A stretch of 64,000 bases of DNA, taken from positions 8,943 to 72,942 of the forward strand of contig CAZCME010000001.1 of the NCBI GenBank assembly GCA_964499705.1, in the 5' to 3' direction. The position numbers and the translations under genes are program-made. The stretch is from an uncultured bacterium. Lineage in GTDB: Bacteria > UBA8481. Shown in pieces: positions 30,505 through 60,819 of this stretch; the stretch's first letter is position 1; each line of letters starts with the position of its first letter. The notes under the pieces are model-generated. The model was not told where the DNA came from and did no database searches. It was given only the letters and a program-made list of their open reading frames with translations.

Positions 30505-31581
30505 ATGGTTAACAAGCAGAAGCCCGTCACGATAGAAATGGTCGCATCGCAGGCCGGCGTCTCCAAGACGACGGTCTCCTTCGTCCTCAACAATAATCCA
30601 TCCATCAGCGAAGCCACGCGCAAGAAGGTTCTGCAAATTGTCGACCAACTCGGCTACCAGCCCAACACCAACGCCCGGAATCTCTCCTCCAAGAAGACGC
30701 GAACGATCTGCATCGTCCTTCCCGAATTGGGACACATCTTCGAGGATCCCTACTTCGCCCGCGCCATCGGCGGTGTGTATGACGAAGTCGAAGCCGCGGA
30801 TTACCGGCTCATCCTGAAGAAAGCCTCGTTCGAATTCGCGAAGGACAAGGAATACCTGAACCTCTTCCGCCGGAAGGAAATCGCCGGAATGCTGTATGTC
30901 GGCTCCACGCTCGACGACCAGTACCTCGCCGAATTTGTCGACACCGGTTTTCCGTTCATTCTCGTCAACAGCTACCTGCCCGGGATCAACATCCCCTTCG
31001 TCATCTCGGACAACGTGACCGCGGCCTACGTCGCGACGCATCACCTGATCGAACTGGGTCACACGCGGATCGGGCATATCGCGGGATCCAGGAACACGAC
31101 GACGGCGATCGATCGGATCGCGGGATATCGAAAGGCGCTGGAGGAAGCCGGGATCGGCTTCGATCCCGACTTCATCGCCGAAGGCCACTACAACAAGAAC
31201 ATGGCATCGGCGGCGACGCGACGGCTCTTCGAGCTTTCCGAGCGGCCCACCGCGATCTTCGCCGGAAACGACATGATGGCGCTCGGCGTCCTGGACGCCG
31301 CTTCCACGCTCGGGCTCCGCGTTCCGGAAGATTGCGCTCTCGTCGGAGGCGACAACATCGAGATTTCGCAGTTCACGAATCCGCCCCTGACGACGATCGA
31401 TCAGCCGATCTACGAGGTCTCGCGGACGGCGATCCGGACGTTGTTCGAGCTCATCAGCGGGGAGATTCTCCCGTCGGAAGCGCGCAAGATGACCCCGACG
31501 CAGCTCATCGTGAGGAAATCCTGCGGCGCGAAATCGGGAGTGGAAAACGGAAAGAGGGTCGGAGCAGCCGGTGCCAAGTAG
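30505..31581 (+). CDS. LacI-family transcriptional regulator
   Basis: N-terminal HTH (..VTIEMVASQAGVSKTTVSFVLNNNPSISEATRKKVLQIVDQLGYQPNTNARNL..) and periplasmic-binding-fold C-domain (..ICIVLPEL.., ..IGHIAGS....DRIAGYRKALEEAGI..). Confidence 0.88.
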   Translation: MVNKQKPVTIEMVASQAGVSKTTVSFVLNNNPSISEATRKKVLQIVDQLGYQPNTNARNLSSKKTRTICIVLPELGHIFEDPYFARAIGGVYDEVEAADYRLILKKASFEFAKDKEYLNLFRRKEIAGMLYVGSTLDDQYLAEFVDTGFPFILVNSYLPGINIPFVISDNVTAAYVATHHLIELGHTRIGHIAGSRNTTTAIDRIAGYRKALEEAGIGFDPDFIAEGHYNKNMASAATRRLFELSERPTAIFAGNDMMALGVLDAASTLGLRVPEDCALVGGDNIEISQFTNPPLTTIDQPIYEVSRTAIRTLFELISGEILPSEARKMTPTQLIVRKSCGAKSGVENGKRVGAAGAK

Positions 31582-31836
31582 AATCGAAAGTACACACCGC
31601 ATGCCGGATCATGTGACACCTGTCATCTTGCCGTATGAAGCAACAAGTAAGAAAAAGTACACTGTGAATCGTTGGTCGCGTCGGTAATGAATCTTATGAT
31701 ACGCAGGGCGATTTTTTCATGAAGAACGATCGTCGCGGCACAGTGCATTTCATGAATCTATTCGCGGGAGAAAACAGGACGGTGCGGAGCAACTTGATGC
31801 GGGGCATGTCGGGGGCGACGGGACACGAATGATCTG

Positions 31837-34800
31837 ATGAAAACAAGGCGATCACCGTCGCAGCCTTCCTACGCTCTCCTCGCATCCCTCTTCCATCGAT
31901 TCATCCTCTTAGCATCTCTCTTCCTCGTCGTGACATCCGTGGAGGCATGGACTCTCGCCGATCAGCAGATGCCGACGTCCTGGGCCGGCCACTCGTACAC
32001 GCCGTCGCCCGGCGACTGGCGTTACTTCGGCGTCTATCAGGTGATGACCGACCGGTTCTACGACGGCAATCCTTCGAACAACACGGCGCATAATTATTCC
32101 ACCGACTTTGGCGCGCCCTCGGGCCAGCTTCCCACGGAAGGCAACCGCCGGACGATCGGCGGCGACTTCCAGGGCATGAAGGAGAACATCGACTACATCA
32201 AGTCGCTCGGTTACGACGCCATCTGGATCTCCAATCCGTTCATGGGCACCGAAGCCAACGGTTACGCGCCGACGACGTACAACTGCATCGACCCGAAGCT
32301 CGGCACGGTCCAGGAATTCCGCGATCTCGTCGACGCCGCGCACGCGCGCGGGATGTACGTCATTGTCGACATGGTCGGGAACCACTTCGCGAACTGGTTC
32401 ACCGATCACGCCTTCAACGGCGCCGGTTACGGCACTCCGACGTATGCCACGGATGCGTCCAAGCGTTACGGCGCGACCTTCAACGACGCGATCGGGGAGG
32501 GGAACTTCCACAACTACGGCAACATCTCGAACTGGAACGCGCCGTGGGACCTGGAGCACGGCGAACTGGTCGGACTTGACGACCTCATCACGGAAGACGC
32601 GTATGTCCGGAACTACGTCATCGACCACTACGTCAACATGATCAAGGCTTTCGACATCGACGGATTCCGCGTCGACGCGATCAAGCACGTGAACATCAAC
32701 GATTGGGCGTTGATCTGCTCCGGGATCCGCGCCGGAGCCGCCGCCGTAGGAAAGAGTAACTTCTACATGTTCGGCGAAGCCTTCTCCGGTTCGCACGACG
32801 CCGTCGGCTACTACACCGGCAACAAGGCCGGCACGGGCACGAAGATCATGAACGGCATGATGGACTACGCGATGTACCAGCAGGGTGTGCCGTGGATGCT
32901 CTTCAATGACCAGTGGGGCCTGAAAAACTGGGTCGCGGGAATGAACAACGCTTCGTACGACATGGGACAGGGGAACGGGACGACGGTGTGGAACTTCGGG
33001 AACATGAATGTCCACTTCGCCGACAACCATGACGTCGCGCGGTTTCTCTCGTCAGGAGACTGGGACAGGATGCTCTCGGTCCAGGGCATGCTGACGATGA
33101 TCGAGGGCCTGGGCGCGATGTACTACGGCGGCGAGCAGGCCTTCAACACGGCGGGGACGGACGGACGCGGGGCGTACGGCGCGCTGTACGATCATCCCTT
33201 CCAGTGGGACAACGCGGTCGGCGACAACGTCAATATGTCGTTCTGGTTGTATAAAAAGATCGCGAAGATGATGGCGGCGCGGCGACGCATCGGCGCCGGG
33301 CTCGGTACCGGAACGACGCTTCTGGATCCCCAGAACGGCATCTTCGCCTTCCGGCGCGGGAATGACGCCTTCGTCGCGATCAACGGCACGAACATGACGC
33401 AGTCGGCGACGTTCAACGTCGGGCTCTCAGGGACATGGACGAACCTCGTCGACGGATCGTCGGGTTCGGGCCCGAGCCTTGCGATTTCGCTTCCGAAGTA
33501 CGAAGTGGGCGTCTGGATCCGGAACATCGCGGATCCGGTTCTCGAGCCGATGGTGACGGATGTTTCTCCCGCCAACGGCGCCTTGACCGGCGCGACGACA
33601 TTGACGATCACCTTCGACCAGAACATGGATCCGGCATCGACGATCGCGGCGGCCTCGATCGCGCCGGATCCGGGCGGAACATGGAACGTGACCGGCGCGA
33701 CGCTGACGAGGACGGGGATGACGGTGCAACCGGGGGTCACGTACGTTGTGAAGGTCGCCAAGACCGCGACGAACGCGACCGGCAAGGCGATGTACGGCGG
33801 ATTCGTCTCGCGGTTCAAGGGGAGCTATTCTTCTCCCGTCGTCAACGGCAATGTCATTACGTTCAACTACCAGGGCGGAGCGACGGCCAAGGTTAAAGGA
33901 AACTGGGCGATTACGGGGGGATCGAACGGAGTCTACACGGCGGCTTACAACGCGGCGTGGACGGGCCCTGCCGTGGACATGATTCAGTCGAACGGTTTGT
34001 GGACCGCGACGATCACGCTGACGGAGAACACGGTCTTCGAGTACGGCTTCGAGATCAACGGCGCGTGGACGAACGATCCGGTGAACACGAATCATGCGGT
34101 AAACGGGAACGACAGGTTCACTTCCGGAGCGGGAACTCCTGCCGGTCCGGATTCCGTACCGCCGGTTTTCGGCGGTCTGACATCGGCGACGGACGCGGGG
34201 ACGAGCGGAAAAGTCAACCTCGCGTGGTCCGCCGCGACGGACACCTCGACGCCGATCAAGTACAACATCTTCTGGACCAATAACGCGGCGGATTCCGTCG
34301 CGAAGTCGTACGTCGACATGACCCCGAACGCGGTCGTTTCCAGCGCGACCTCGTACCAGGTGACGGGACTGACGAACGGCGCCCAGTACTGGTTTGTCGT
34401 CCGTGCCGAAGACGCCAAGACCGGAGCGGGCGGGCCGGGCGGCGGAAACCAGGAGACGAACCTCGTCGACAGGACTGCAACGCCGACAGGACTCGCTTCG
34501 CCGATCGTCAATGGCAATGTCGTGACGTTCGCGTTTTCGGGAGGCGGGCTCGGGAAGGTGAAGGGGAGCTGGATCGTGACGGGCGGGTCGAACGGGAACT
34601 ACACCGCCAACTACGATTCGACATGGAACGCGGGCGCGACGACGAACATGGTTCTTTCCGGATCGGTCTGGCGCTGCACGTTCACTCTTCCCGCCAACAC
34701 CACCTTCGAGTACGGATTCGAGATCGACAGCGCCTGGACGAACGATCCGTTGAACACGAATCATGCGGCGAACGGAAACGATAAATTCACGACGGGCGCC

Positions 34801-37800
34801 GCATCCAACGGAGACACGACGCCTCCATCCTTCGCAGGCCTGGCGACGGCGGTCGATTCCGGAACGGGCGGACGGGTATCCCTCGCATGGGCCGCCGGCA
34901 CGGATGCTACAGGCCCCGTCCGATACAACGTCTACTGGACGAACAGCGCCGCCGCGCAGGTCTCGAAGTCGTACGTCGACGGGACGCCCGATGCGACGAC
35001 GACATCGACGTCGTACCTCGCCAGTGGATTGACGAACGCGTCCCAGTACTGGTTCGTTGTCCGCGCGGAGGACTCCGCGTTCGGCAGCGGTCCCAACGGC
35101 GGCAACCAGGATACGAATCTCGTCGATCAGACGGCGACCCCCTCGGGCGCCTCCAACACGGCGCCTACCGCGAACGCCCAGAACACGACGACGCCGCAAA
35201 ACACGGCGAAGGTCATCACGCTGACGGGATCGGATCCCGAAGGGAGCTCGCTGACGTTCGCGATCGCGACGCAGCCTTCCAATGGAACGCTGTCGGCGAT
35301 CACCGCGATCAACGCGACGTCGGCGTCGGTGACGTACACGCCGAACACGAACTTCAACGGCAACGACGCTTTCACCTTCACGGTCAACGACGGCCTGCTG
35401 ACATCGGCGTCCGCCAATGTCGGCGTGAACGTCGTCTCGGGCGCGCGGCCGCCGATCTACATCTCCTTCCTCTGGCACATGCACCAGCCGAAGTACTGGC
35501 CGGACGAGCCGGCGACGGCGACGGAAGGGCGGACCGACTACGGATTCAGCATCCGGACGATCCACACGGACCGCACCGGGCCTTACACTTCGTGGCCGAT
35601 CGATGCGATCCAGAACGCGATGAACGCCGGTCTCGCAAACAGCGGAGCGCAAGTGACATTCACGGGATCCTTGACGGAAAACCTGAACGACTACGAGGCG
35701 GCCGGATGGGCTTTTGGCGGATGGAAGAACCGCTGGCGCGAAGGAATGCAATGGCGAACGGCGCTCAATAATCCCCGACTCGACATCACCCAGTTCCCTT
35801 ACTTCCACGTCCTGCAGCCGCTCATCGGCGACAAGTGGACGCGCGAGCACATCCGGCTGTTCCAGAACATGTACCAGGGAACGTTCTCCGCGGCGGCGCA
35901 ATCAAAAGGCATGTTCCCGACGGAGAATTGCGTCTCCGATTTCCTCATTCCGGCATGGAAGGACAACGGCATCGACTGGGTGATCGTGGACAATGTCCAC
36001 TTCGACCGCACGGCGCTGGGGTATCCTTGGAGCTCCGGCGGAAACCTGTACGAGATGAACGGCGCCGACATCCTCAATCCGAATCCGAACGACTGGGTCC
36101 AGTTGAATGGGCTCTGGGCTCCGACCAAGATCTCCGCCCGCTGGGGCCATCAGCCTCACTACATGCAGTACGTCGATCCGACGACCGGCACGGTCCGCAA
36201 GATGATCGCGGTGCCGGGATCGCGGTATCTCGGCAACGAGGATGCGCGCGGCGGGTACGGAGCGCTCCAGTATGACGCCGTCCTGTCGCAGCTCGAGCCG
36301 TTCAACACGGATCCGGCCCATCCGATCCTCGTCGTCCTGCCGCACGACGGCGACAACTACGGCGGCGGCACGGACGGGTATTATCACGGCAATTTCTCCG
36401 CGATGATCTCCTGGCTCCAGTCGAATCCCACGCGGTTCCAGTTGATCACGATCCAGGATTATCTCTCCATGTTTCCGCCGGACCAGAGCGACGTGATGCA
36501 CATCGAGCCGGGCGGATGGTCGGGCGCGGACAACGGCGATCCGGAATACAAGAAGTGGAACGGAGATCCGGCGGCGGACGGATACAGTCCGGACCGGAAT
36601 TCGTGGATGACGCTGATGGCGGCGGAGAACCGGGTCGAGCACGCGGAGCGGCTCCAGCCGACGAACGGCAACGTCGCGACGGCGATCCGGAAGATGATGG
36701 TCGGCATGACGTCCTGCTATTGGTACTGGGACGGCTCTCCGCCGTGGGACTACCACGTGACGCGCGCCTGCAACGAGGCGGTCGGGCTCGTCGATCCGAT
36801 CATCGCTGGCGGCGGCGCCGATCTCCAGCCGCCGACGGTCTTCCTGCCGCAGCGCGATCCGTACAATCCGGGCGGCAAGGAATGGAACATCCAGCAGGCC
36901 TCGAACCTGAAGGTCTTCACGCCGGCCTACGACGTCTCGGGCCTCCGGCGCGTCGAGCTGAAGTATCGCGTGGACGACGACGGGAATAATCCGATCGCCG
37001 ATGTCGCGAATGAGGTGTACGCGGGCGGCGCGGGTGTCGGCGCCTGGCAAACGCTCTCGATGACCGTCGATGCCTTCCCGGCGTCGCGGTCGAATCCGCA
37101 GCCGATCTATCGCGCCAACATCTACGCCGCGACGATAGACGGGACGAACCTGGCGAACAAGCTGGTGGATTATTACGTCGAGGCGGAAGACAACGCGGGG
37201 CTTATCACGAAGACCGTGATCCAGCATGTGAAGTGGGGCGGCACGGGTGGCGGCGGCGGCGGCACGACGATCTGGTCGCCCTCGGCGCCGACGTCATCGG
37301 ACACGATCACGGTGACGTGGACGAAAGCCAGCAAGCTCCATTGGGGCGTCAACAACTGGGTGGCGCCGAATGCGGTCTATTGGCCGGCGGGAAGCGTCGC
37401 GTGGGACGCTCAGTCGATCGAATCGCCCCTGGACGGCAGCTTCAAGATCGTGATCGGACCGTTCAATAATCCGGCCCAGACCGTGACGGAAGTGAATATC
37501 GTCTTCCACAACAACGACGGCACCTGGGACAACAACGGCGGACTCAACTGGAAGATTCCGATTCTCGTGGATACGGCGCCGCCCGCGCGTCCGGCGACAC
37601 CCATTCTCACCTCCGGCAATACGACGATCGATCTCACCTGGGCGGCCAATGGTGAAGCGGACTTGAACGGCTATCGCCTTTACCGCGCGCTCGCCGCCGC
37701 GGGACCGCACTCGCTCATCGCGACGCTCGCCAGGACCGCGACGACGTTCAACGACAGCGGGCTTTCGAACGGGACGACGTATCACTACGTATTACGCGCG

Positions 37801-55800: not shown

Positions 55801-58800
55801 TACATCGATACGCTCATCTCCGTCAGCGCATCCTCGCCCGCCGCGAATGCGGAGACATTGGTGCTGCGGCCGGCCTTCGCCTGGACGGGAGCAGCGGACT
55901 CTTACCGGTTCGACCTCTCGCGGTCGGCGACCTTCGCGACGCTCGTGGAGACATCCGCGATGACGGCGCAGGGACTGACGATCGCCTCGAGCCTGACTGC
56001 GGACACGTACTATTGGCGCGTGGCGGCCTGGGATGCGGCCGGCAACGCCGACACGACCGCGGCGCGGACTCTCTTCGTCGACACGGGCGTCACCGTTGCG
56101 TCGGCGCCGCCCGCCGACAATACGAGGACGAACGATTCGTCGCCCTCCTTCACGTGGGCGGGCGACGGCGATTCATACACGTTCCAGATCGCGCGCGACA
56201 CATCCTTCGGTGCGATCGTCGATTCGAGAACCACGGCTGCGGCGGCCTACACGACCTCCTTCTACTACGGGGCGGACACGTATTACTGGCGCGTGCTGGC
56301 GACGGATGACGCGGGCAATCTGGCGTCTTCCGCCTCGCGGCTCATCGTGATCGACACGGGCGTCGTCATCGCGCTTTCATCGCCCGCCGACGGCGCGCTC
56401 TCGAACGATTCCACGCCGGCTTTCACGTGGACGGGCGACGCGGATACGTACGTTCTCCAGGTATCCAGCACGTCGACGTTCGCTGCGATCTTCGACTCGA
56501 GAACGACCTCGGCGACGACATATACGCCTTCCTCGGGATATGCGACCGACACCTACTGGTGGCGCGTGATCGGATACGACGCGCTGGGCAACGTTGAGAC
56601 GACGGCATCCCGGACGTTCCGGCTCATGACGGCCGTTGCCGTCAACCTCCTGACGCCGTCGGACAGTTTCTACGCGAACGTGCTCTCCCCGTCTTTCACG
56701 TGGACCGGCACGGGCGACACGTACACGTTTCAGCTCTCGTCGTCCCCGACGTTCGCGACGCTTGCGGAGAGCGTCCAGCAGCCGACGCTCTCGAGAACCA
56801 CCGCTCTCTCGCTGGGAGCGGGTGTCTGGTATTGGCGCGTCATCGCCCGCGACGTGGCCGGGAACACCGACACGGCCGTCGCGCGCGCGCTCGTCATCGA
56901 CACCTCCGCTTCGGTCGCACTGGCGACGCCGGCGGATGCGACGCGCACGAGCGATTCGACGCCGTCCTACTCATGGACGGGCGACGGGGACACATGGACG
57001 GTTCAGATTGCGCGCGACGCAGGCTTTGCAACAATCGTGCAGCAGTCGACGGTGAACGTTCAGACATACACCGCGACGATCCTCCCGGAGGACACGTACT
57101 ACTGGCGCGTGATCGCGAGAGACAAAGCCGGCAACTCCGACACGGCTGCCGCTCGCAGCTTCATCGTCGATACCTTTGTCAGTGTCGCGCTCGATACGCC
57201 GGGAGACCTGTACAAGTCCCGCGACGTCACGCCGAACCTTTTCTGGACCGGCACGGGCGATACGTACCGCGTGGAGATATCCCGCTCGGCGACCTTCGCG
57301 CCGCTTTACGAGACAGCGACTCTTGCGGCTTCGCCCTTCAACTCTGCCGTCGTTTACCCGGGCGACACCTATTACTGGCGCGTCATCGCGACGGACCAGG
57401 CGGGCAACTTCGACACGACAGCGGCGCGCCGGTTCATCGTCGACACAACGGCGCCGGACACATCAACGACTGTGACGCTCACGACGCCCGCCGATCAGCA
57501 CGACACGAGCGACTCGACGCCGACCTTCCTCTGGTCGGGCGACGCGGACACGTACATCATCCAGGTCGCGCGTGACACGTCGTTCGCGGCGCTTGTCGAC
57601 GCAGCGACGCTTTCCGGCGCGGTCTCGTATACGACGGCCGGATACTATGCGCAGGATACATACTACTGGCGCGTCATCGGATTCGACGTTGCCGGCAATT
57701 ACGACACAACGCCGGCCCGCCGCATTGCGATCGATACAACGGTGAACGTGGCTCTCGCGTCGCCGTCCGATGCCATTCAGACGCTCGATACGCGTCCGAC
57801 GTTCACGTGGACCGGCGACGGCGACACATATCTGCTGGAGCTCGCCTTCAACGACAACACCTTTGCGACGCTCCATGATTCCCAACTGAGCTCGGCGCTG
57901 ACCTACCGTCCCTCCGCCGCGAAATACATGGGAGCCGGGATCTACTACTGGAGAGTGACGGTCTGGGATCGGCTCGGCAATCAGAAGACCGCGTCCACCC
58001 GGTCGCTCTTTATTGACACGGAAGTCCGCGTCACGCTCTCGACGCCTGCCGACGGCGATTCGACGACGAACAACCGGCCGACGTACACCTGGGCGGGCGA
58101 CGCGGACACGTACTGGCTCCAGGTCTCCACGAGCGCGGTCTTCGCCACGATCTACGATTCGAAGTATCAGGCGGCGAACAGCTACACGCCGGGCTTCTCG
58201 TCATCCGGCGGCACTTATTACTGGCGCGTGACCGGCTACGATCAGGCCGGCAACATCTTCACAACGACCGGCCGGTCGCTGCTCATCGTGAACGCGCTGA
58301 CGCTCTCGCTCACAGCTCCGGCCGACAACATCCGCACGACCGATTCGACGCCGTCCTTCACCTGGACGGGCAACGGCGATTCCTACACGTTCGAGATCTC
58401 CAAATCGTCATCGTTTGCGACGACGATCGACACGAAGAACCTTACGGTGACGAATTACGCGCCCGCGGGCTACTACGGAGCCGACACGTACTACTGGCGC
58501 GTCATCGGCCGCGACTCGGCCGGCAACACCTTCACGTCGCCGACGCGCACGCTCGGCATCGACACCATCGCGGCGGTTTCCCTGACGTCGCCGGCGAGCG
58601 GCACGCGGACGAAGGATACGCGCCCGATCCTGGTGTGGTCCGGCGACGCGACGTCGAACGCGAGCGACGTCTTCACGGTCCAGGTCTCGACGTCCCTCTC
58701 CTTCGCGACGATCGCGGCGACGACGTCCGGCTATGTCTCCTCCTACCAGCCGACGCTTGTCGCGGATACATACTACTGGCGCGTGCTTCTCGTCGATGCG

Positions 58801-60819
58801 GCGGGCAATGCGGACACGTCCGCGACCCGCATTCTCGTGATCGACACGATCGCGCGCGTCACGCCGACGGCTCCCGCCGACGGGCTCCGCACGAACAGCA
58901 CGACGCCCGCTTTCACATGGACCGGCGACGGCGACGCCTTCACAATCCAGGTCTCGAAGGTGAATACGTTCGCGACGATCGCGGCGACAACGACCGGATC
59001 GATCTACAGCTATACGCCGACGCTTGCCGCGGATACGTATTACTGGCGCATCTTCGTCACGGACGCCGCCGGCAACGCGGACACATCCGCGACGAGATCT
59101 CTCGTCATCGACACGCTGGCCTCGGCGACATTGACCGTCCCGGCGGATAACCTCCGCACGAGCGACTCGCGCCCGATCTTCACATGGACGGGCGACGGAG
59201 ATACCTTCACGATCCAGGTCTCGAAGGCGAACACGTTCGCTTCGATCGCGTACACGAATACGTCCTCCGTGATGACATACCAGACGACGCTCGCGACGGA
59301 CACATACTACTGGCGTGTGCTCGCTTCGGACGCGGCCGGCAACGCGGGCGTTTCGGCCACGCGCACGCTCGTGATCGACACGAGCGTCGTCGTGACGCTC
59401 ACATCACCTGCAGATCTCTTCGCTCAGACGGAGACGAAGCCGACATTCACATGGACCGGCGACGCGGATACATACATCCTTCAGATCTCGACCTCCTCCT
59501 CCTTCGCGACGATCTTCGACTCGAAGACGACCTCGTCTACCTCTTACACACCTGCGCTCGGCTACGCGCTCGACACGTACTACTGGCGCGTTACAGGTCA
59601 GGACAACCTCGGCAATGTCTTTACGACCGCGTCGAGAACGCTCTATCTTGTCCTCATTCCGCCGCCTCCGGCGCCGAACGATTCGACGACGTCCTTTGCC
59701 GACGTCATAACGGTCTCGAGTTCGCTCGGTTCCTCCGGTCTCCGCGTGACCGGCACGTCCATTACGCTGTCGACCGGCTTCAGCGATTCCGTTCTCTCCG
59801 TCGTTTTCGAATATCGGACGGTGATGGACGCGACATGGCGCTCGTGCACGATCGCGACGAACAGCGGCTCGAACCCGGATACGAAGGGGCCGCTCTGGAG
59901 CATCTACTGGGATGTCTCGGCACTGCCCGAGGACACGTACTACCTCCGCGCGACCGCGACCAAGCTGGACGGAACGATGGACTCCACACCCTCCACGATC
60001 AGCCTGATGAAGAGCGCGATATTGCCGCAGATCCAGGAGTGGCACGACACGGCGCTGAACCGGCACATCCGCCGCCAGGCCGTGATGCGCGCGACATGGG
60101 ACACGATCATGATTGCCGACGGCACGATGCTCATTATTCCGCCGACCGCGATTCCGGGGACGGACAGCATGTGGGCGCGGGTCACGGCCCATGCCGCGGC
60201 TCCTGCGGAAGCGCCCGCTCCGGGCGCCGGCAGCGTTCTCGTAGCCGGAACATCAGGCACGTATCGCCGTTTCGAATTCGAGAACGGCCAGTCGACGTTC
60301 AACGATTACGTCACGATCGGGATGCCGTATTCCGAAGCCGGGCTCACCGTCACCGAAGGCGAACTGGCCATCTACTATTACGACGCGGGCCTCCAGAGCT
60401 GGGTCAAGACCGACAGTTGCTGGGTGGACACGGTCCGGAACATGGCCTGGTGCCGCGTCCGCCACTTCACGGACTTCGCCGTCTTCGGAGCCGCCGCCGC
60501 CGGAAATCTCGGCAGCGTCATCGTCTATCCGAATCCGTTCGTTCCCTATGACAACGACGTCCAGACCGGCCAGCCGTTCGTGCGGGGCGACAACACGACC
60601 GGCATCATCTTCTCGCGGGTCACATCCACGGTCGACATCGACATCTACACGATCGCGGGCCGCAAGGTCTCCACGATCCATGCGACGAACACGGGCGGCA
60701 ACGTCCAATGGGATGTCCGGAACGACGAAGGCCGTGAAGTCGCCTCCGGCGTCTACTTCGCCATCATCCGCGCGCCGAACGGCGAGCGGAGCGTGCAGAA
60801 GTTCATGGTGATCCGATGA
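31837..60819 (+). CDS. giant secreted multi-modular alpha-glucan-active protein (9,660 aa): signal peptide, GH13 alpha-amylase catalytic domain, CBM48-like x2, GH57-like catalytic module x2 plus one divergent GH57-like module, CBM25/26-like x2, CBM20-like x3, CBM9-like region, >25 FN3 domains, 32 tandem ~91-aa FN3-like repeats, C-terminal T9SS-type sorting domain
   Basis: Single uninterrupted ORF in the six-frame track. N-terminal signal (MKTRRSPSQPSYALLASLFHRFILLASLFLVVTSVEA). GH13 regions I-IV (..DAIWISNPF.., ..GFRVDAIKHV.., ..FGEAFS.., ..FADNHDVARF..). GH57 regions (..FLWHMHQP.., ..LPHDGDNYGG.., ..SCYWYWDG..) occur twice. C-terminal ..VIVYPNPFVPYDN....GIIFSRVTSTVDIDIYTIAGRKVSTIHATNTGGNVQWDVRNDEGREVASGVYFAIIRAPNGERSVQKFMVIR is T9SS-CTD-like. 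Confidence 0.8.
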   Translation: MKTRRSPSQPSYALLASLFHRFILLASLFLVVTSVEAWTLADQQMPTSWAGHSYTPSPGDWRYFGVYQVMTDRFYDGNPSNNTAHNYSTDFGAPSGQLPTEGNRRTIGGDFQGMKENIDYIKSLGYDAIWISNPFMGTEANGYAPTTYNCIDPKLGTVQEFRDLVDAAHARGMYVIVDMVGNHFANWFTDHAFNGAGYGTPTYATDASKRYGATFNDAIGEGNFHNYGNISNWNAPWDLEHGELVGLDDLITEDAYVRNYVIDHYVNMIKAFDIDGFRVDAIKHVNINDWALICSGIRAGAAAVGKSNFYMFGEAFSGSHDAVGYYTGNKAGTGTKIMNGMMDYAMYQQGVPWMLFNDQWGLKNWVAGMNNASYDMGQGNGTTVWNFGNMNVHFADNHDVARFLSSGDWDRMLSVQGMLTMIEGLGAMYYGGEQAFNTAGTDGRGAYGALYDHPFQWDNAVGDNVNMSFWLYKKIAKMMAARRRIGAGLGTGTTLLDPQNGIFAFRRGNDAFVAINGTNMTQSATFNVGLSGTWTNLVDGSSGSGPSLAISLPKYEVGVWIRNIADPVLEPMVTDVSPANGALTGATTLTITFDQNMDPASTIAAASIAPDPGGTWNVTGATLTRTGMTVQPGVTYVVKVAKTATNATGKAMYGGFVSRFKGSYSSPVVNGNVITFNYQGGATAKVKGNWAITGGSNGVYTAAYNAAWTGPAVDMIQSNGLWTATITLTENTVFEYGFEINGAWTNDPVNTNHAVNGNDRFTSGAGTPAGPDSVPPVFGGLTSATDAGTSGKVNLAWSAATDTSTPIKYNIFWTNNAADSVAKSYVDMTPNAVVSSATSYQVTGLTNGAQYWFVVRAEDAKTGAGGPGGGNQETNLVDRTATPTGLASPIVNGNVVTFAFSGGGLGKVKGSWIVTGGSNGNYTANYDSTWNAGATTNMVLSGSVWRCTFTLPANTTFEYGFEIDSAWTNDPLNTNHAANGNDKFTTGAASNGDTTPPSFAGLATAVDSGTGGRVSLAWAAGTDATGPVRYNVYWTNSAAAQVSKSYVDGTPDATTTSTSYLASGLTNASQYWFVVRAEDSAFGSGPNGGNQDTNLVDQTATPSGASNTAPTANAQNTTTPQNTAKVITLTGSDPEGSSLTFAIATQPSNGTLSAITAINATSASVTYTPNTNFNGNDAFTFTVNDGLLTSASANVGVNVVSGARPPIYISFLWHMHQPKYWPDEPATATEGRTDYGFSIRTIHTDRTGPYTSWPIDAIQNAMNAGLANSGAQVTFTGSLTENLNDYEAAGWAFGGWKNRWREGMQWRTALNNPRLDITQFPYFHVLQPLIGDKWTREHIRLFQNMYQGTFSAAAQSKGMFPTENCVSDFLIPAWKDNGIDWVIVDNVHFDRTALGYPWSSGGNLYEMNGADILNPNPNDWVQLNGLWAPTKISARWGHQPHYMQYVDPTTGTVRKMIAVPGSRYLGNEDARGGYGALQYDAVLSQLEPFNTDPAHPILVVLPHDGDNYGGGTDGYYHGNFSAMISWLQSNPTRFQLITIQDYLSMFPPDQSDVMHIEPGGWSGADNGDPEYKKWNGDPAADGYSPDRNSWMTLMAAENRVEHAERLQPTNGNVATAIRKMMVGMTSCYWYWDGSPPWDYHVTRACNEAVGLVDPIIAGGGADLQPPTVFLPQRDPYNPGGKEWNIQQASNLKVFTPAYDVSGLRRVELKYRVDDDGNNPIADVANEVYAGGAGVGAWQTLSMTVDAFPASRSNPQPIYRANIYAATIDGTNLANKLVDYYVEAEDNAGLITKTVIQHVKWGGTGGGGGGTTIWSPSAPTSSDTITVTWTKASKLHWGVNNWVAPNAVYWPAGSVAWDAQSIESPLDGSFKIVIGPFNNPAQTVTEVNIVFHNNDGTWDNNGGLNWKIPILVDTAPPARPATPILTSGNTTIDLTWAANGEADLNGYRLYRALAAAGPHSLIATLARTATTFNDSGLSNGTTYHYVLRAYDNAANTSDSSISTSATPSGVDVTPPSITSGLSALSLQQAVRITWNRNLESDMDSYVIFRRTSSGVFTQAALADSVTSTYTDTGLSAGETYTYLIRARDRSGNLADSSATATAVAQPNTPPAAPSGFYALPWDSSVRLRWNRNTEGDFAGYRVFRAGVTGGPYTQISGLLTDTQFTDSGLANGTTYFYVLAAVDTAGGQSSYTTEDSTTPRPLINVLFRVDVNGLSGVTIVRIAGDLFTPSWIPTANPLRDLGGGIWGETFAMPISTALQYKYVTNGANWENDFATASGKREITVVSMTADSRMFVNNKWNVAGDPAPTSPPGLQATATSQKVTLRWSNSFEYDIVGFNLYRSTTSGSGYSLIASLGTETGYNDTNVINGDTYYYVMAARDQVGQIGLFSAQVQATPGANQPPAVPNGLNATAGDRRVTLVWNANAEVDLAGYHLYRATVAGGPYAKINTDTILGTSYVDTGVTNGDTFYYVLRSVDIYDSQSAYSTEDSATPRAPDTTAPPVPTGLVATPASGQVTLNWNHVVAADSTGYNVFRGISPSGPFGKINGSLASTNSYVDLTVSNGVWYYYNVRSVDMVNNQSESSATVSAQPQTAVGGIEDRTIDGSFFDWKYTDVRALDTYVDNNYLWWDGFANHPVGYDPSRDLTAVYSREGTSDYFFRVDFQDLALGVEQTNMNLYLALDWNSATGQAFFPDFVDAQTSQPWELIIAIYDGGTTGKTLWKPDWTTIASPNVRASFNSQWDAVEIAVPKSHLTNLGWVSGQKIHLQVFTTRDGTNSGAGEVASLPDITDAMPDSYTQDAYLNGVISTESTVGRAKYSVILHGNQSLNPGGDINKWIYDAVAVTPNGNPSGYHRALQTMEQCNTPVNIHVSGSLAAVMDMANTTNPLNDGPTFNQRIADFVDDDWNDGRKGHIIGGVYAEHIMPYFRDDTSIGITINSRAQELKTDVLTSFYSLSRHPKVFWIPERVVDGQTLDNVILDRRTNTPTGYTTTILDNLTHIYYWLGSSFAHTNEFKLLRINGVNVFQINDHYDDRKFWAQDNAANYEVRTRLLDLARAADQEQVMIVFDDWEAYAGRSFASPNTIHDGPDNFDVSMKWIAQHPWVEVVTLEQLLDRNWTPVDAGTNLTYPKSTYQWLLHASEMGYDNWYWGSAQEENFSQQIPLLTGDRYSSPAVLNPIPSGKRYGSIWDAGTILRDVWSDIQALPGNQLKRLSEQGYIHLIYETAWHDEDISDKAWDPVTRVFTNPDNTWDGTSYWAYDLHGHVRHMGYLAEAARWADSVSAGAQSALTVVQTKDLDYDGESEYILKNSRVFGVFENDGGRMVLGVSYDTAQGGFVMVGNIITNAPSEGEEEDGSRRISAFADMNNSAYINANYSVATGTDSIVFTSPDGLIRKDIRLQHGSGTFEAAYRENLTGPVYIRNGLIANLHEMTYTGERYVQIVGATNGSYYGVKNTRAGGEIRLNFGGTTFNSAFTDGTMDNTNSPFVKAVEVTGNGNFTMSLTLNTDDTSVILDTPPVPSGLSATGGNGQVYLSWSPVSSASLAGYHVYRGTVNGGPYSKISDTRAQTNYTDTGVSNGTTYYYVVKSVSVRGASSANSNQATATPNPPTDTPAAPTGVTATAGNTEITVNWTATDTTLAGWHVYRSAAQGGPYTQVNGSILTGGSFTSTALTNGTRYYFVVKAQSLSGLLSAYSSEVSETPSASANVTTVLTAPSAGQTLTGAVPFTATCTAPQGVNRVEFKVDGALAGTATTPEQAGGDSAAGVWGVGSKTITIDGVNTAGEWTTACRIARDPAWDHANVMNGAWATHETPFDYTDLYAAWDATYLYIGIQIVDVTDIKDPSNAGSSNGTPARAMNLPQWLAFDVAPGGYTGVNGAGANTAEYDAWKKGQLFGGGTGVDTQIYFASNFWQGPFLIPYRNGFFPDSNTIGKQLGVFHGASGQGLAGTEVIGLDGTNFVAQGHNTGRNSFFELKIPLSYLGGPDLATRTIGIMVGQGDGTNASGVDCIPDDPATLNTQGVEVYNSPKEWADVDIFTVPFAKIGTSTGGSGASNTYRVIVNTANYQDGARVVTATGIANGAGGSASSSANVTFANAAPPPPAPTGVVATPASTLVALNWSAATGATGYNVYMATVSGGPYTKQNTSLVAGTQYSIPSLTNGTTYYFVVTAVNGQGLESPYSSQVQGIPAAGVNVVFTVDMRNAGAYSSVQVAGNQFTPAWTPSATPLANNTGGTWTVTRSFPSGTQIQYKYVKDSTGWEADFATTSKNREITVADQGGGVMYVDNVWGQEGNAAPAGPTGVTLTAAQSSITVSWTRSTSFDVISHCVYRSQTSGGPWNLVHETSTVNSWVDTGLTNGTRYYYVVRAKDRANQYSAYSTEVNATPGNDPAPAAPTGLAATAGVNQIALSWNPNTEPDHSGYNVWYTVSGGNGVPVKINGAIIPTAGYTHTNLDPNLTYTYYITCVDSGANEGPASATVARQPLNGGSQQPIYIAYQWHMHQPIYWPYENIRTTYTTRTNYAYVRDVLAWPDRVDAYTHNPVDAVANHMASKPNWGAQISYSGSLQENINNMAAASDGYFPGWNNRYAEGHGWTTTLGNRRVDLVSFGYHHPLLPFIDYRDARLQIQMHRRITTTTFGNPYSLGMFPAESAFSERIIPQLLDEGLQWVMVDNLHLDHCNKNFPWAAGEKINPPNRADAVNPPQGTYINLSCQTNTNYNVSPWGLRPHYAKYVNPNDGTERKMIIVPLERSLGYDDSYGDRTPQARLQAFLPHNTDPAHPLLVVLAHDGDNAGASGFRYYVETMGWLAGADPNQFRFTTVQDYLQMFPPDVNDVVHITDGSWVGADLGDQELKKWLGDPYQSGVVNFEQGFSSDWNSWMVITAGKNRMLTAEAIAPASGDIGGIVYKNGNNTDKAWAEFLVGEASCFWYWDGTVQWDEQPSRAVANAMVYADPIIASSPGTDNIAPNIFSLQREPYNPGATEAFKGVQPSDFQVFTFIYDVNAVSNATLYYRIDADGENPIGDNANEIYAGGAGVGPWVALTMETRVYAMPPAAQIQPQYRAEIYRAFINGLSNTLVDYYVTATDGRGNVSKSDIYHCYIGDPNSGGGGGRWTPANPTSSDTITITGDKAGKLHWGVNGWVAPNGVYWPSGTTTYDAQSVESPLDGTFKIVIGPFNNAAQAVTRVDFVFHYNDGTWDANSGLNYRIDITNDTTPPAQPTGFTSSPGNGFVQLGWTLGAGDVSSYKIYRGTTSGGPYSQVVSTGRVATYTDTAVVNATTYYYVLRSADATGNLSDTTTQISATPSGVDTTPPAKPSNVNATASEFGATVSWTANNEYDLAGYRIYRSITAGSSHVLIETTSLTSRSHSGLNPADTYYYVIVAFDSSGNASDTSTEKAIKPLAAQPPAAPTGVAITAGNAVCTITWNANGEPDLAGYNVYRAQGSSTAPYVKVNGSTVVVTNYANSGLTNDTTYYFRIRAVDTAGAESDSSAIVSATPVAGITVAFRVNVTGFSPGVVQIAGNQLTPTWTPSANPMTNEGANIWKIEKTYPVGTVIQYKFVRDTTTWESDFPAGASTNRDITVVDQGGGKMYVNNTWNVDGDAIPATPTGLQATAGAGAVNLTWNAVTVFDLDGYCVYRATAVGGPYAKIANQITLTSRNDSGLVNGTTYYYYVTAEDSAGQASGASSTVNATPIIPDTTSPAVVSGVDATVQGSTIRVAWNPNGETDVVGYRVYRSASANGAYTQLNGTIETDSDYSDSTVSVNTVYHYRVRAQDASGNLSDTSSADSASVTGNPIGVDGDPSEWTGTGPTTDRTYSIINGQWIWRDPPADQRTDATDPDSNYDLTEVRFTGDVNGVSFLGKFTDISASNLPFISLAVDKDQLAGSGEEWFSSNTDMTMADTGRRDYEIVINSNKTGYYGVGDNNWNWSDTGSSFISPGNNVIEANFQWYSLGITLPKLVRFTMGVAQHDGAGSAAEIFGSDALDAVTTATGNTWTEISDGQLDYNFDIGFNADGKVNSAPDTPTWIAPADGANLTSPLITFQWNQSDTDGAIAVSPYYEIQYATNSGFTTGLVIDSGAGNLTSRDRTFSGSGTYYSRVRMRDDFLWSGWSATRTFSVVDSTAPDGSASDWLGVASTTANESTVDKGEWIWTDANTDERTDGTDPDGNYDLKELRLKGDTSYLFILAKFRDITTTTLPYLAIGVETDQIYGNGQKWFGNGSDLQMDTNAWRELELVMNNNNVGFYSTINSWVWNDSGARTISTTNDLIEARYVWSDLKIVLPKKLRFSAMTAENDAGNVKDRYNADALDVVTQYSGNTWGEVQDTVLNFWVDLDFNRSGLINTRPGKPSLIAPLAGVTLNTSTVSFQFAWSDADSGAIANPKIELQLSTDSAFQTIVATCVEFDLDTLCAASLSSGGNFWWRVRTFDDFETSVWSDTRDFRADFYAAPITLLEPPDGIDTNTSFVRFAWTQPLDDLSGLDSFLLEIGTSSTFDTYQQTRTVDSNSYQLLKQGETVYYWRVRAVDRAGNMATSATRWLRLDTSVTVSAVTPTAGAATNDSTPTYTWTGNGSVYVFQLAPDATFFTLQDSVTLPGTTYAPSGATYHAHGGHYWRVLAWDTVGNSASTASRAIGIDTSVSVNFGAPANSTDTNQQRPVFSWSGDADTWTFEISRFTDFSVLYDNTTTAALTYQPGANYAGDTYYWRVRGQDTFGNTATATYRQIVIDTGITVNQTSPIDGVETNDATPTFAWTGDADTYIVEIATDAGFAAIMDSKTTNGLSHTPAANYNQGLFYWRIRAQKTAGSSKTTPTRTFRIDTSVVVTLVSPVANLETRSLRPVFTWTGDALSYNFQASTSATFATLVDTTISSGLIRTAAADYRADTYYWRIVARDTVGNIETSPVRILIVDTGVTVSSSTPADGFRTNDSTPTFTWTGTGETYILQVSRFTGFDTLTDVVTTAASTYTPSAYYGAAAYHWRVIASDDAGNIETSVDRIVTIDTSITVALSSPSNVFRTNSTAPAFAWTGDADTWTLQVARDAAFTAIVENRTQTLASFTGAGYSADTYYWRVSGADYAGNRDTTSSRSFTVDTTAAVTLTSPAASTVTSDSTPSFTWTGDGDTFTIQVSSSSTFATIQDSAISGGYTYTPSARYYGSGVWYWRVLSRDVAGNAETTASRTFTVDTGVVVTLSTPADGARVNFVTPTFAWTGDANIYVIQVSTASTFASLVDSKTTTALNHTPAFAYPADTVYWRIVGFDTVNVETSASRVLVIDTQVAVSLTSPANGSRTNDSTPAFAWTGGGDTWNIEVSRFSNFGSLLDAATLAGTTTYTPAQYYPADTLYWRVTARDSVGNSATTASRSLVIDTSVVAALSSPDDLFQTNDTTPAFVWTGDAQTWLLQVSRFTNFSVLFDSSATASTSYTTTILYPTDTYYWRIAGQDDVGNRETTAYRTLIIDTGLVVNLATPAANLETKSLRPVFSWSGNADTYIFQLSASAAFATILDSQTGATATFTPVADRAADTYYWRVVAKDNAGNTETSASRVLFIDTAPPSAPALASPADSATTRNVITVFTWTGDADSYAIELARDSVFASVVLAETRPTVSATSPQLGRDTYWWRVRGYDDAGNAGPWSGMRALFVDTLITVSGTTPADGARTNDSTPTFTWTGNGDTYTIEVSRLANFAALTIQATTTASTFTAGGSLGADTYYWRVSAVDSFGNAGVSTTRSFAVDTSATVTLATPADNTVTNDTTPSFAWSGDGDTWTIQVSRLANFSTIYDASTSAVATYTTGGYYGADTYYWRVVSLDQAGNSETSGSRIIVIDTAVSSTLATPADSTRTSDSTPSFTWTGSGDTYRLDISKSITFAPLQATATTSAVSHTLTTYLGQDTYYWRIVSLDVAGNTDTSAGRMLVIDTSATVSLTSPAAGTRTNDSTPAFSWSGEADTWTFEIARIADFSALVESRVTAATSYTPSTLYYGHDTYYWRVSGSDVAGNSAVAASRTLYIDTLISVSASSPAANAETLVLRPAFAWTGAADSYRFDLSRSATFATLVETSAMTAQGLTIASSLTADTYYWRVAAWDAAGNADTTAARTLFVDTGVTVASAPPADNTRTNDSSPSFTWAGDGDSYTFQIARDTSFGAIVDSRTTAAAAYTTSFYYGADTYYWRVLATDDAGNLASSASRLIVIDTGVVIALSSPADGALSNDSTPAFTWTGDADTYVLQVSSTSTFAAIFDSRTTSATTYTPSSGYATDTYWWRVIGYDALGNVETTASRTFRLMTAVAVNLLTPSDSFYANVLSPSFTWTGTGDTYTFQLSSSPTFATLAESVQQPTLSRTTALSLGAGVWYWRVIARDVAGNTDTAVARALVIDTSASVALATPADATRTSDSTPSYSWTGDGDTWTVQIARDAGFATIVQQSTVNVQTYTATILPEDTYYWRVIARDKAGNSDTAAARSFIVDTFVSVALDTPGDLYKSRDVTPNLFWTGTGDTYRVEISRSATFAPLYETATLAASPFNSAVVYPGDTYYWRVIATDQAGNFDTTAARRFIVDTTAPDTSTTVTLTTPADQHDTSDSTPTFLWSGDADTYIIQVARDTSFAALVDAATLSGAVSYTTAGYYAQDTYYWRVIGFDVAGNYDTTPARRIAIDTTVNVALASPSDAIQTLDTRPTFTWTGDGDTYLLELAFNDNTFATLHDSQLSSALTYRPSAAKYMGAGIYYWRVTVWDRLGNQKTASTRSLFIDTEVRVTLSTPADGDSTTNNRPTYTWAGDADTYWLQVSTSAVFATIYDSKYQAANSYTPGFSSSGGTYYWRVTGYDQAGNIFTTTGRSLLIVNALTLSLTAPADNIRTTDSTPSFTWTGNGDSYTFEISKSSSFATTIDTKNLTVTNYAPAGYYGADTYYWRVIGRDSAGNTFTSPTRTLGIDTIAAVSLTSPASGTRTKDTRPILVWSGDATSNASDVFTVQVSTSLSFATIAATTSGYVSSYQPTLVADTYYWRVLLVDAAGNADTSATRILVIDTIARVTPTAPADGLRTNSTTPAFTWTGDGDAFTIQVSKVNTFATIAATTTGSIYSYTPTLAADTYYWRIFVTDAAGNADTSATRSLVIDTLASATLTVPADNLRTSDSRPIFTWTGDGDTFTIQVSKANTFASIAYTNTSSVMTYQTTLATDTYYWRVLASDAAGNAGVSATRTLVIDTSVVVTLTSPADLFAQTETKPTFTWTGDADTYILQISTSSSFATIFDSKTTSSTSYTPALGYALDTYYWRVTGQDNLGNVFTTASRTLYLVLIPPPPAPNDSTTSFADVITVSSSLGSSGLRVTGTSITLSTGFSDSVLSVVFEYRTVMDATWRSCTIATNSGSNPDTKGPLWSIYWDVSALPEDTYYLRATATKLDGTMDSTPSTISLMKSAILPQIQEWHDTALNRHIRRQAVMRATWDTIMIADGTMLIIPPTAIPGTDSMWARVTAHAAAPAEAPAPGAGSVLVAGTSGTYRRFEFENGQSTFNDYVTIGMPYSEAGLTVTEGELAIYYYDAGLQSWVKTDSCWVDTVRNMAWCRVRHFTDFAVFGAAAAGNLGSVIVYPNPFVPYDNDVQTGQPFVRGDNTTGIIFSRVTSTVDIDIYTIAGRKVSTIHATNTGGNVQWDVRNDEGREVASGVYFAIIRAPNGERSVQKFMVIR
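31960..33530 (+). other. GH13 alpha-amylase-type catalytic domain of the giant protein
   Basis: Conserved regions at 32161..32240 (GDFQGMKENIDYIKSLGYDAIWISNPF), about 32662..32690 (GFRVDAIKHV, nucleophile Asp), about 32770 (FGEAFSG, acid/base Glu) and about 33016..33045 (FADNHDVARF). Confidence 0.8.
35441..36840 (+). other. GH57-like catalytic module 1 of the giant protein
   Basis: HMHQP at 35476..35490. ..MFPTENC.. (putative nucleophile Glu region). VVLPHDGDNYGGG at about 36328..36366 (GH57 region IV HDDGEKFG-like). SCYWYWDG at 36711..36734 (region V CNDAYWHG-like). Confidence 0.6.
40270..41300 (+). other. divergent third GH57-like module of the giant protein (possibly non-canonical or non-catalytic)
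   Basis: ..SVILHGNQSLNPGG.. in place of HQP. ..VFDDWEAYAG.. at 41023..41049 in place of HDDGE. ..YDNWYWGS.. at 41257..41280 in the region-V position. Confidence 0.4.
45270..46700 (+). other. GH57-like catalytic module 2 of the giant protein
   Basis: QWHMHQPIYW at about 45301..45330. ..MFPAESAFSE.. VVLAHDGDNAGAS at about 46153..46191. SCFWYWDG at 46582..46605. Collinear with module 1. Confidence 0.6.
50830..59650 (+). repeat. in-frame tandem array of about 32 FN3-like repeats (period ~275 bp / ~91 aa) inside the giant gene
   Basis: Each unit carries ..TP.F.WTGD(A)DTY..QVS....FA......T....YTP.....DTYYWRV.A.D.AGN..T...R.L.IDT.. The (Y/W)(Y/W)WR(V/I) core occurs 32 times between about 51060 and 59580 at 265-285-bp spacing. 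Nucleotide copies differ mostly at wobble positions. Confidence 0.85.
60530..60816 (+). other. T9SS-type C-terminal sorting domain (Por secretion CTD / FlgD-Ig-like) of the giant protein
   Basis: Last ~90 aa: YPNPF...(G)IIF........DIDIYTIAGRKV.........G..V.WD..N..G..VASGVYFAII....G....QKFMVIR is the canonical CTD pattern. Confidence 0.6.

Follow-up and report, generated by a model that had tools for sequence, protein, structure and literature searches.

The window analysed here – a 64,000-nucleotide stretch of contig CAZCME010000001.1 (assembly GCA_964499705.1) – holds a giant open reading frame (ORF) that lies between a gene for a LacI-family transcriptional regulator and a gene for an outer-membrane protein of the PorV/PorQ family (Table 1). 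The giant ORF is a genuine gene, and it belongs to a Candidatus Hydrogenedentota bacterium found in groundwater of the Hainich carbonate aquifer. The original prediction took it for one giant gene, a view now upheld by the single open frame, by uniform codon composition and by a collinear orthologue in another species; it also saw in the product a secreted, multi-catalytic, alpha-glucan-directed surface protein with a T9SS-type tail (T9SS, type IX secretion system), a core claim that the predicted modules support. Catalytic modules of glycoside hydrolase (GH) type are here joined in one chain with carbohydrate-binding modules (CBMs), FN3 spacers and immunoglobulin (Ig)-like repeats.

Table 1. 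Modules of the giant ORF and other features of the window (aa, amino-acid residues of the giant protein; nt, window nucleotides; HMM, hidden Markov model)
Feature	Position	Strand	Remarks
Giant ORF	31837..60819	+	ATG start; 9,660 aa, 1,038 kDa, pI 4.6
Predicted Sec-type signal peptide, residues 1-37 (...LFLVVTSVEA, next residue W)	31837..31947	+	Typical n-h-c region, read by eye from the translation
GH13 alpha-amylase-type module and C-domain, aa 40-560; candidate D280, E314, D399	31954..33516	+	PF00128, Alpha-amylase_C
Big_5 Ig (565-660), two [CBM20/48-like + FN3] units (665-1094), Big_9 Ig (1107-1198)	33529..35430	+	Pfam Big_5, fn3, Big_9; CBM_20 sub-threshold
GH57 module A, aa 1205-1910: catalytic part (E1363/D1504), beta domain, PF23166-like domain	35449..37566	+	PF03065, PF23166
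FN3 x3, CBM20, FN3 x3 (aa 1916-2591)	37582..39609	+	Local HMM counts
Third catalytic module, aa 2595-3500: N-domain, GH57-fold (beta/alpha)7 barrel, galactose-mutarotase-like beta-sandwich	39619..42336	+	Candidate nucleophile E2963, candidate proton donor D3066
FN3 x2, Big_7 Ig (aa 3512-3750), CBM74 (aa 3758-4045, nt 43108-43971), trailing Ig-like segment	42370..44136	+	phmmer against PDB
FN3, CBM20 (aa 4185-4285), FN3 x2 (aa 4094-4477)	44116..45267	+	PF00686 45.4 bits
GH57 module B, aa 4485-5200: catalytic part (E4641/D4779), beta domain, PF23166-like domain	45289..47436	+	PF03065
FN3 x3, CBM20 (aa 5490-5590), FN3 x2 (aa 5206-5783)	47452..49185	+	Local HMM counts
X1 (aa 5790-6010) and X2 (aa 6115-6335), each followed by an Ig-like domain (to aa 6436)	49204..51144	+	Self-comparison
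31 tandem 91-aa Big_13-type Ig-like repeats, aa 6434-9272, proposed stalk	51136..59652	+	PF19077 327 bits; 273-nt period
C-terminal cassette, aa ~9310-9660 (~350 aa), ending in a predicted T9SS type-A sorting domain, aa ~9565-9660	59764..60816	+	TIGR04183
PorV/PorQ-family outer-membrane protein gene	60816..62273	+	NF033709 178 bits, cut-off 90
LacI-family transcriptional regulator gene	30505..31581	+	Pfam LacI, Peripla_BP_1, Peripla_BP_3; 255 bp upstream of the giant ORF
Phosphoglucomutase/phosphomannomutase (PGM/PMM) gene	26803-28242	-	3.6 kb from the giant ORF
GH3 gene with PA14 insert	4165-7065	-	Cluster 1580-12771
PF10091 'glycoamylase'-type protein gene with F5/8-C domain	6774-9005	-	Cluster 1580-12771
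Gene for a 1,241-aa protein with two F5/8-C domains	9046-12771	-	Cluster 1580-12771

Evidence that the ORF is coding came firstly from its translation, which meets only the terminal stop. At the base composition of the window (~62% G+C) the probability that a random codon is a stop is ~0.029, and the chance of 9,660 codons without one is, by simple arithmetic, ~e^-287. The G+C content of third codon positions (GC3) in this frame is 0.80-0.89 in 19/19 bins of 1.5 kb, a uniformity in one frame that indicates coding along the whole length. Copies of internal repeats share 60-81% of their nucleotides, the longest exact internal repeat measures 25 nt and the number of repeated 27-mers is zero, which makes misassembly through repeats unlikely.

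Independent assemblies bear on the same issue. The PGM and FapA proteins of the window are identical to MEK8024005.1 and MEK8024006.1 at NCBI, where the neighbours of the giant ORF lie on a 507,892-bp contig. Short reads from well H51 of the Hainich aquifer had also yielded an assembly of this population (ENA ERZ1292634). One contig of that assembly (L069) matches window positions 28432-37309: its 16 differences from the window are all found upstream of the giant ORF, and over 31837-37309 (~5.5 kb, 1,824 codons open) identity is 100%. At a coverage of about 4-5x the gene is broken after codon 1824 (window 37309), and a second contig (L070) begins 25 nt past the stop (window 60844); the middle and 3′ parts of the gene are thus missing from the listed contigs.

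Stronger support for integrity comes from a contig of a different species, CAZJQD010000003.1 of GCA_964548165.1 (hereafter L001). From L001:1592 onwards its orthologue stays open as far as the fetched DNA reaches, giving at least 6,843 aa. It aligns collinearly with residues 24-6837; 300-aa tiles are 49-83% identical, and gaps occur in just 135 of 6,939 alignment columns (135/6,939). Comparison of the two genes by the Nei-Gojobori method gives a ratio of nonsynonymous to synonymous substitution (dN/dS) below 0.4 in every segment (overall range 0.10-0.38). Purifying selection is strongest in the CBM74, at 0.10 the lowest value of the protein; the four catalytic modules follow at 0.13-0.18, while the spacers, the stretches containing CBM20, the N-domain of the third catalytic module and the segments X1/X2 range from 0.21 to 0.38. 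In a further fragment (L002) CBM74 comes after the third module, as it does in the giant ORF. Metagenome scans with the C-terminal cassette and with CBM74 returned nothing that extends the giant gene.

These data speak directly to the possibility that the ORF is an artefact of assembly or a pseudo-fusion, that is, a chimera of paralogous repeat genes or the outcome of compensating frameshifts. Such an account could draw on the fragmentation of the gene in the short-read assembly from the same site, on a 3′ third that is seen in this window only, and on the absence of the exact giant protein from the public protein collection in which its neighbours are present. It must also accommodate the lack of repeated 27-mers, the uniform GC3 in one frame, a collinear orthologue in another species over 70% of the length, a short-read contig that is 100% identical over 5.5 kb, and a stop codon that overlaps the start of the PorV-like gene in an arrangement seen elsewhere; we regard it as very improbable. 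For residues 1-6837 misassembly was rejected on the combined grounds of collinearity with L001, identity with L069 and the absence of repeated 27-mers.

The first catalytic module is an alpha-amylase-type GH13 module, with 133.5 bits to PF00128 (cut-off 22) and 27.1 bits to Alpha-amylase_C (cut-off 21.2). All four conserved regions that had been claimed for it are in place: DMVGNH at 178, GFRVDAIKH at 276, FGEAF at 312 and ADNHDV at 395, so that region I is present and the catalytic triad D280, E314 and D399 is retained. The best solved relative is an alpha-amylase (E 1.9e-32), in which GFRVDAIKH, FGEAF and ADNHD are aligned; regions I, II and IV pair with its DIVTNH, GFRIDTVKF and IDNHDM, and FGEVF stands on the PDB side near region III. 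The best NCBIfam rows are models of periplasmic alpha-amylases, with scores far under their cut-offs.

The presence of two GH57 modules, likewise predicted, is borne out by PF03065 scores of 48.9 bits (module A) and 57.4 bits (module B) against a cut-off of 21.2, and by motifs – HMHQP, HDGDN and CxWYWDG – that are invariant or nearly so in 36 homologues. Self-comparison places A and B at 40-63% identity. By definition a GH57 barrel has a Glu just after strand 4 and an Asp that closes strand 7 (PMC6037648); in modules A and B the candidate Glu nucleophile and candidate Asp proton donor take these places, within the five conserved regions. In the query made from module B, E162 and D300 (E4641 and D4779 of the giant protein) are invariant in the 36 sequences, the equivalents in module A being E1363 and D1504, and H12, H14, Q15, P16, E80 and W440-D443 of the same query are likewise conserved. 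Modules A (1205-1700) and B (4485-4990) are assigned a (beta/alpha)7 barrel followed by a helical bundle, and in the model of B the residue E162 comes directly after a short strand (157-158) and D300 at the end of strand 294-300. Solved GH57 structures – the Thermococcus litoralis 4-alpha-glucanotransferase (1k1w), Thermotoga maritima AmyC (2b5d) and the amylopullulanases (9jlr, 7e1y) – share with the giant protein the (beta/alpha)7 barrel, the Glu after strand 4 and the Asp at the end of strand 7, but are only 10-18% identical to its GH57-type modules.

Alongside the catalytic modules stands a set of modules of starch-binding type, several of which differ from what had been proposed. One of them is the CBM74, which matches that of Ruminococcus bromii Sas6 (7uwv/7uwu; phmmer E 1.9e-13) over two parts of the 291-residue query, 12-145 and 192-285, and which probably corresponds to the module originally labelled CBM9-like. 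CBM74 is a module of ~300 aa, flanked by Ig domains, that binds granular starch and helical alpha-glucans (bioRxiv 10.1101/2022.11.20.514607). In the giant protein a Big_7 Ig domain precedes it, reminiscent of the BIg domains on either side of the Sas6 CBM74; the Big_7 match (window 42949-43086) spans the first two thirds of the profile only, and an Ig-like stretch follows the module (window 43972-44115). The CBM74 may lie within Ig domains, or be closely bordered by them, as in Sas6.

The three CBM20 modules of the original prediction fared unevenly: the copy at aa 4185-4285 stands clear of the PF00686 cut-off of 23.3 (45.4 bits), but those at aa 5490-5590 and 2200-2302 reach just 22.0 and 15.0 bits on their own, and are assigned as paralogues on the strength of 45-52% identity with the first copy or between themselves (45% for 2200-2302 against 5490-5590). 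A pair described as CBM48-like (aa 665-997) yields no more than a sub-threshold CBM_20 signal, 15.9-23.1 bits against the same cut-off, in a duplication that is 57-63% identical; we refer to it as CBM20/48-like. The pair taken for CBM25/26 matches PF23166 instead, with 26.7 bits in module A and 31.9 bits in the other copy (cut-off 27). X1 and X2, each of ~220 aa, are ~40% identical to one another and 57% identical to their counterparts in L001, and have no match in Pfam, NCBIfam or the sequences of the PDB. Both (window 49204-49866 and 50179-50841) begin with 'DGxxxEW', reminiscent of the starts of CBM74 and of the N-domain of the third module.

The original prediction of a third, divergent GH57-like module holds for the fold but for none of the sequence-based GH57 tests: the module lies outside the Pfam GH57 model, and hhalign of its profile against that of modules A and B, while aligning regions 2 and 3, gave a probability of 1.7%, which is not significant. 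A few members of its family carry a precomputed PF03065 match. The structural model of residues 2810-3500 nonetheless predicts a GH57 fold, in which E159 (E2963, in WIPERV) follows strand 154-156 and D261/D262 (D3065/D3066, in FDDWE) end strand 256-262. These candidate catalytic residues are invariant in 35 homologues, and WIPERV and FDDWE resemble the WLTERV and HDDGE of GH57, a family with five conserved regions. The layout of the modelled Glu and Asp is that of the GH57 catalytic pair (PMC6037648), and a catalytic function would follow from it. With a modelled fold and catalytic layout of this kind and no match in sequence, we call the module a GH57-fold module of an uncharacterised family and not a demonstrated member of GH57.

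The family to which it belongs is sizeable. The module has 330 close homologues, and its profile, searched against 1.84 billion representatives, retrieved 961 of these at E<=1e-3 and 229 at E<=1e-30. Relatives of ~1,000 aa occur in Eisenbacteria, Sumerlaeota, Planctomycetota and Verrucomicrobiota; more distant ones are archaeal, among them those of Thermogladius/Thermosphaera (Desulfurococcales-type) at 24-27% identity. Many members sit within fusions of 2,000-3,500 aa. Neither Pfam nor NCBIfam has a model for the family. Its N-domain of ~215 aa (aa 2595-2810) is conserved among members and has no match in the PDB, Pfam or NCBIfam.

Relatives of GH57 modules A and B are found in proteins of ~1,000 aa (GH57, PF23166 and a T9SS tail) from Ignavibacteria and Bacteroidota, at up to 50% identity, and their clade contains no characterised member. 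GH57, CBM74 and the third module are fused in proteins of 2,800-3,200 aa (L004:2621-12100, L005 and L007), and a 2,341-aa ORF (L044:5024-12046) joins GH57 to the third module; CBM74 was not found in L044. All four ORFs come from Sumerlaeota-type metagenome-assembled genomes (MAGs), and their GH57 is of the A/B type. Fusions of these kinds in other lineages argue that the modules work together. Descriptions of CBM74 have for the most part linked it to GH13 enzymes of Gram-positive gut bacteria.

What reaction the GH57-type modules catalyse is a separate question. They, and the third above all, could be glucanotransferases or branching-type enzymes, or could act on some other glycan, in which case the protein would remodel a polymer and not simply hydrolyse it. 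A predicted extracellular location, and fusion to starch-binding modules and to an alpha-amylase-type GH13 domain, fit depolymerisation, and the recurrent fusion to CBM74 points to alpha-1,4-glucan helices as substrate. We hold remodelling to be a doubtful, though not negligible, possibility.

Between and beyond these modules lie the spacers. The original prediction spoke of dozens of FN3 domains, whereas the local HMM count is 18 FN3 together with 33 Big_13-type Ig repeats. This wealth of repeats raises the question of whether the protein is primarily an adhesin, serving attachment to alpha-glucan-bearing surfaces, biofilm matrix or prey cells with the enzymes as accessories. Attachment would then run through its 51 beta-sandwich repeats and its binding modules. 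An Ig-repeat array makes up one third of the protein, and bacterial proteins of >5,000 aa are mostly nonribosomal peptide and polyketide synthases (NRPS/PKS) or surface attachment proteins (PMC11573180). But catalytic residues are retained in all four catalytic modules (dN/dS 0.13-0.18), which, together with CBM74, belong to the most constrained portions of the protein, and every binding module that could be assigned is of starch type. Binding and degradation are in any case not mutually exclusive, and a primarily adhesive role seems to us improbable.

Clues to the route of export lie at the C-terminus. The predicted T9SS-type sorting signal is recovered, if marginally, by TIGR04183 (24.2 bits, cut-off 23), and C-terminal matches to PorZ and PorU were also obtained; residues 9270-9560 gave no Pfam or NCBIfam match except a weak pAdhesive_6 signal. 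The ATG of the PorV-family gene overlaps the TGA of the giant ORF (ATGA). A cassette 39-56% identical to that of the giant protein also forms the C-terminal end of proteins of ~560-610 aa from related genomes, in each case followed by a PorV-like gene: two such pairs lie in L074, from the same MAG as L001, and one in L075. With the window the arrangement is found at 4 places in 3 genomes (window 59764-62273; L074:8001-11200 and 13119-16525; L075:8001-11319). The type-A tail and the overlapping PorV-family gene support secretion and outer-membrane anchoring as the predicted fate of the protein. The recurrence of the pairing suggests dedicated cargo/PorV pairs in this lineage, and is the best evidence for a dedicated step in the handling of the giant protein.

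Homology, fold, conservation and gene context together lead us to a mechanism. We consider it likely, from the features encoded in the DNA, that the giant protein is exported by Sec and a T9SS-like pathway, tethered by its C-terminus, and that it is a stalk-borne degrader of alpha-glucan with four enzymes. The product would leave the cytoplasm by Sec via its N-terminal signal peptide and cross the outer membrane by a type IX-like route that recognises the cassette and its type-A sorting domain, with the PorV-family protein from the overlapping downstream gene probably handling it; thereafter it would stay attached to the cell surface through the C-terminus. The membrane-proximal 31-33 Ig-like repeats would form a stalk whose extended length we put at roughly 110-140 nm, each Ig domain being taken as about 4 nm. 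This stalk would hold out an N-terminal region of ~5,800 residues comprising FN3 spacers, four putative retaining, alpha-glucan-active modules (one of GH13 alpha-amylase type, two GH57 and one divergent GH57-fold) and eight modules of starch-binding type (three CBM20, the CBM20/48-like pair, the PF23166-like pair and one CBM74). The protein may then dock on alpha-glucan in insoluble or particulate form – granules of starch, glycogen, or detritus or cells rich in alpha-glucan – where complementary enzymes would attack in proximity, making it a covalent single-chain counterpart of the amylosome. The adjacent LacI-family repressor would control the gene.

An intact chain is not the only fate that can be imagined for such a product. 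It could be a polyprotein, a single precursor that is cut after export into free or loosely attached enzymes, leaving no 1-MDa machine at the surface. Each catalytic module with its own binding domains has as its counterpart, in other bacteria, a complete stand-alone secreted enzyme of ~1,000 aa; short Gly-rich linkers, evident in the translation, lie behind the beta domains of both GH57 modules; and T9SS cargo is normally cleaved at the tail. Against this, no protease or autoprocessing domain appeared in any Pfam or NCBIfam scan, and the two species agree almost perfectly in the order of their modules and the number of their spacers, as the few gap columns attest. Purifying selection acts on the spacers as well (dN/dS 0.22-0.38), in keeping with a structural role in an intact chain. 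We judge processing into separate enzymes unlikely, and return to the tethered, stalk-borne degrader as the preferred account.

That account has its own difficulties, and several observations weigh against it. No alpha-glucan or maltodextrin transporter lies adjacent to the gene, whose neighbours are housekeeping genes, and the window holds no T9SS component other than the PorV/PorQ-family gene. The tail scores below the cut-off of PF18962 (Por_Secre_tail; 19.8 bits against 27), and its pass with TIGR04183 is marginal. The 3′ third of the ORF (residues 6838-9660, Ig array and tail) is represented by this window alone. The third module has no meaningful match in Pfam, in NCBIfam, by phmmer against the PDB or by hmmsearch of the PDB with a 35-sequence profile. 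Finally, GH57 also comprises transferases and branching enzymes, and hydrolysis by the GH57-type modules is therefore not assured.

Comparison with known systems helps to locate what is new. The giant protein is ~3x longer than any listed relative, and adds GH13, a second GH57 and the stalk. The original prediction held a GH13 and GH57 fusion on this scale to be undescribed; our literature search found no description of such a giant multi-catalytic protein, but the parts and their partnership are widespread. Since the modules are known alone or in fusions of 2,000-3,500 aa from other phyla, the novelty is one of scale and combination, and not of parts. Among the nearest precedents are the T9SS-linked enzymes of Bacteroidota. 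Multi-catalytic cellulases of this kind reach ~1,900 aa, and in 'Ca. Paraporphyromonas polyenzymogenes' (GH5-GH5 and ~1,900-aa six-GH5 proteins), as in Flavobacterium ChiA, several GH modules and CBMs are joined in one chain with a T9SS C-terminal domain, for which, as for the giant protein, extracellular attack on insoluble polysaccharide has been proposed (PMC5831590). The giant protein is ~5x longer than these, its predicted target is alpha-glucan in place of cellulose, xylan or chitin, GH13 and GH57-type modules are combined in it, a 31-repeat stalk is present, and its host belongs to the Hydrogenedentota.

SprB of Flavobacterium johnsoniae, a motility adhesin of about 6,500 aa without enzyme modules, is itself giant T9SS cargo. 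Like the giants of Omnitrophota it is a very long, repeat-rich surface protein, and such proteins indicate that secretion of near-megadalton chains is feasible. The Omnitrophota giants differ in having many transmembrane segments and SecA-like domains, and in lying beside type II secretion genes (bioRxiv 10.1101/2023.11.21.568195).

There exist parallels, too, with starch-degrading systems of Gram-positive bacteria. The R. bromii amylosome, through Sas6 (CBM26-CBM74-dockerin), shares with the giant protein an Ig-flanked CBM74 accompanied by other starch CBMs in a surface system for granular starch (bioRxiv 10.1101/2022.11.20.514607). The amylosome is a non-covalent assembly of many GH13 proteins held by cohesin-dockerin pairs on a Gram-positive wall, whereas the modules of the giant protein are covalently linked, include GH57 types and would be anchored to an outer membrane by a T9SS-type tail; none of our Pfam scans found a cohesin or dockerin in it. 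MaAmyA and MaAmyB of Microbacterium aurum (PMC5093618) resemble the giant protein in placing FN3 domains and several starch CBMs, including CBM74 (GH13 with FNIII, CBM25, CBM74), after a GH13 domain, and degrade raw starch; they are far shorter proteins, secreted by a Gram-positive bacterium, with a single catalytic domain, no GH57 and no stalk.

Of the neighbouring genes, the LacI-family regulator is present as had been claimed, and its position is conserved: in L001 the orthologous giant ORF is likewise preceded directly by a homologue with 60% identity. When the upstream regions of both species were searched for a LacI operator, no inverted repeat of >=12 nt emerged. These regions are divergent except for one short conserved block at window 31655-31680 and at L001 ~1500-1530 (GTAAGAAAAAGTACAC and GTGAGAAAAATTTCAC, respectively), a candidate promoter or operator element; within the window AAGTACAC recurs once, at about 31586. 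The phosphoglucomutase gene, put forward as a fitting alpha-glucan neighbour, was rejected as supporting context: lying on the opposite strand, 3.6 kb off and behind lptE and holA-like genes, it is weak context at best.

The rest of the window consists of cell-division and envelope genes and a distant cluster of beta-glucan type. This cluster (1580-12771) is an unrelated carbohydrate cluster that includes two sugar ABC binding proteins; its GH3, PF10091 and sugar-binding-protein genes were considered as parts of the system and rejected, being of beta-glucan type and at least 23 kb away. The gene order ftsA-ftsZ-pilT-like-amidase-Cu-oxidase_4 is conserved between window 13741-19671 and L075:11556-17754. 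In L075 the ftsA-ftsZ block lies directly downstream of the cassette/PorV-like pair; in the window the giant-gene pair is located elsewhere.

All modules are small enough for separate expression, which makes these ideas directly testable, and the enzymes could be of practical interest in raw-starch processing. If the chain is made and displayed intact, then proximity between enzymes on insoluble starch or glycogen would be achieved by covalent concatenation on a ~100-nm stalk and not by cohesin-dockerin pairing, and a type IX-like pathway outside Bacteroidota would be able to handle an enzyme of 1 MDa. The protein draws attention to two clades of extracellular GH57-type enzymes that lack a characterised member, one of which escapes current family models, and places CBM74 in groundwater Hydrogenedentota and in GH57 fusions of Sumerlaeota type. 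For gut microbiomes, CBM74 has been put forward as a marker of bacteria that degrade resistant starch. We advance more tentatively, as a conjecture that may well prove wrong, the view that the third module represents an uncharacterised GH57-fold family whose specificity differs from that of classical GH57 and is tied to helical or crystalline alpha-glucan bound by CBM74, and that the cell displays the whole 1-MDa chain, a covalent 'amylosome on a stalk' that might rank among the largest single-chain polysaccharide-degrading machines described. Were this reading true, machinery for granular starch, so far a feature of Gram-positive gut bacteria, would extend to diderms of the oligotrophic subsurface.

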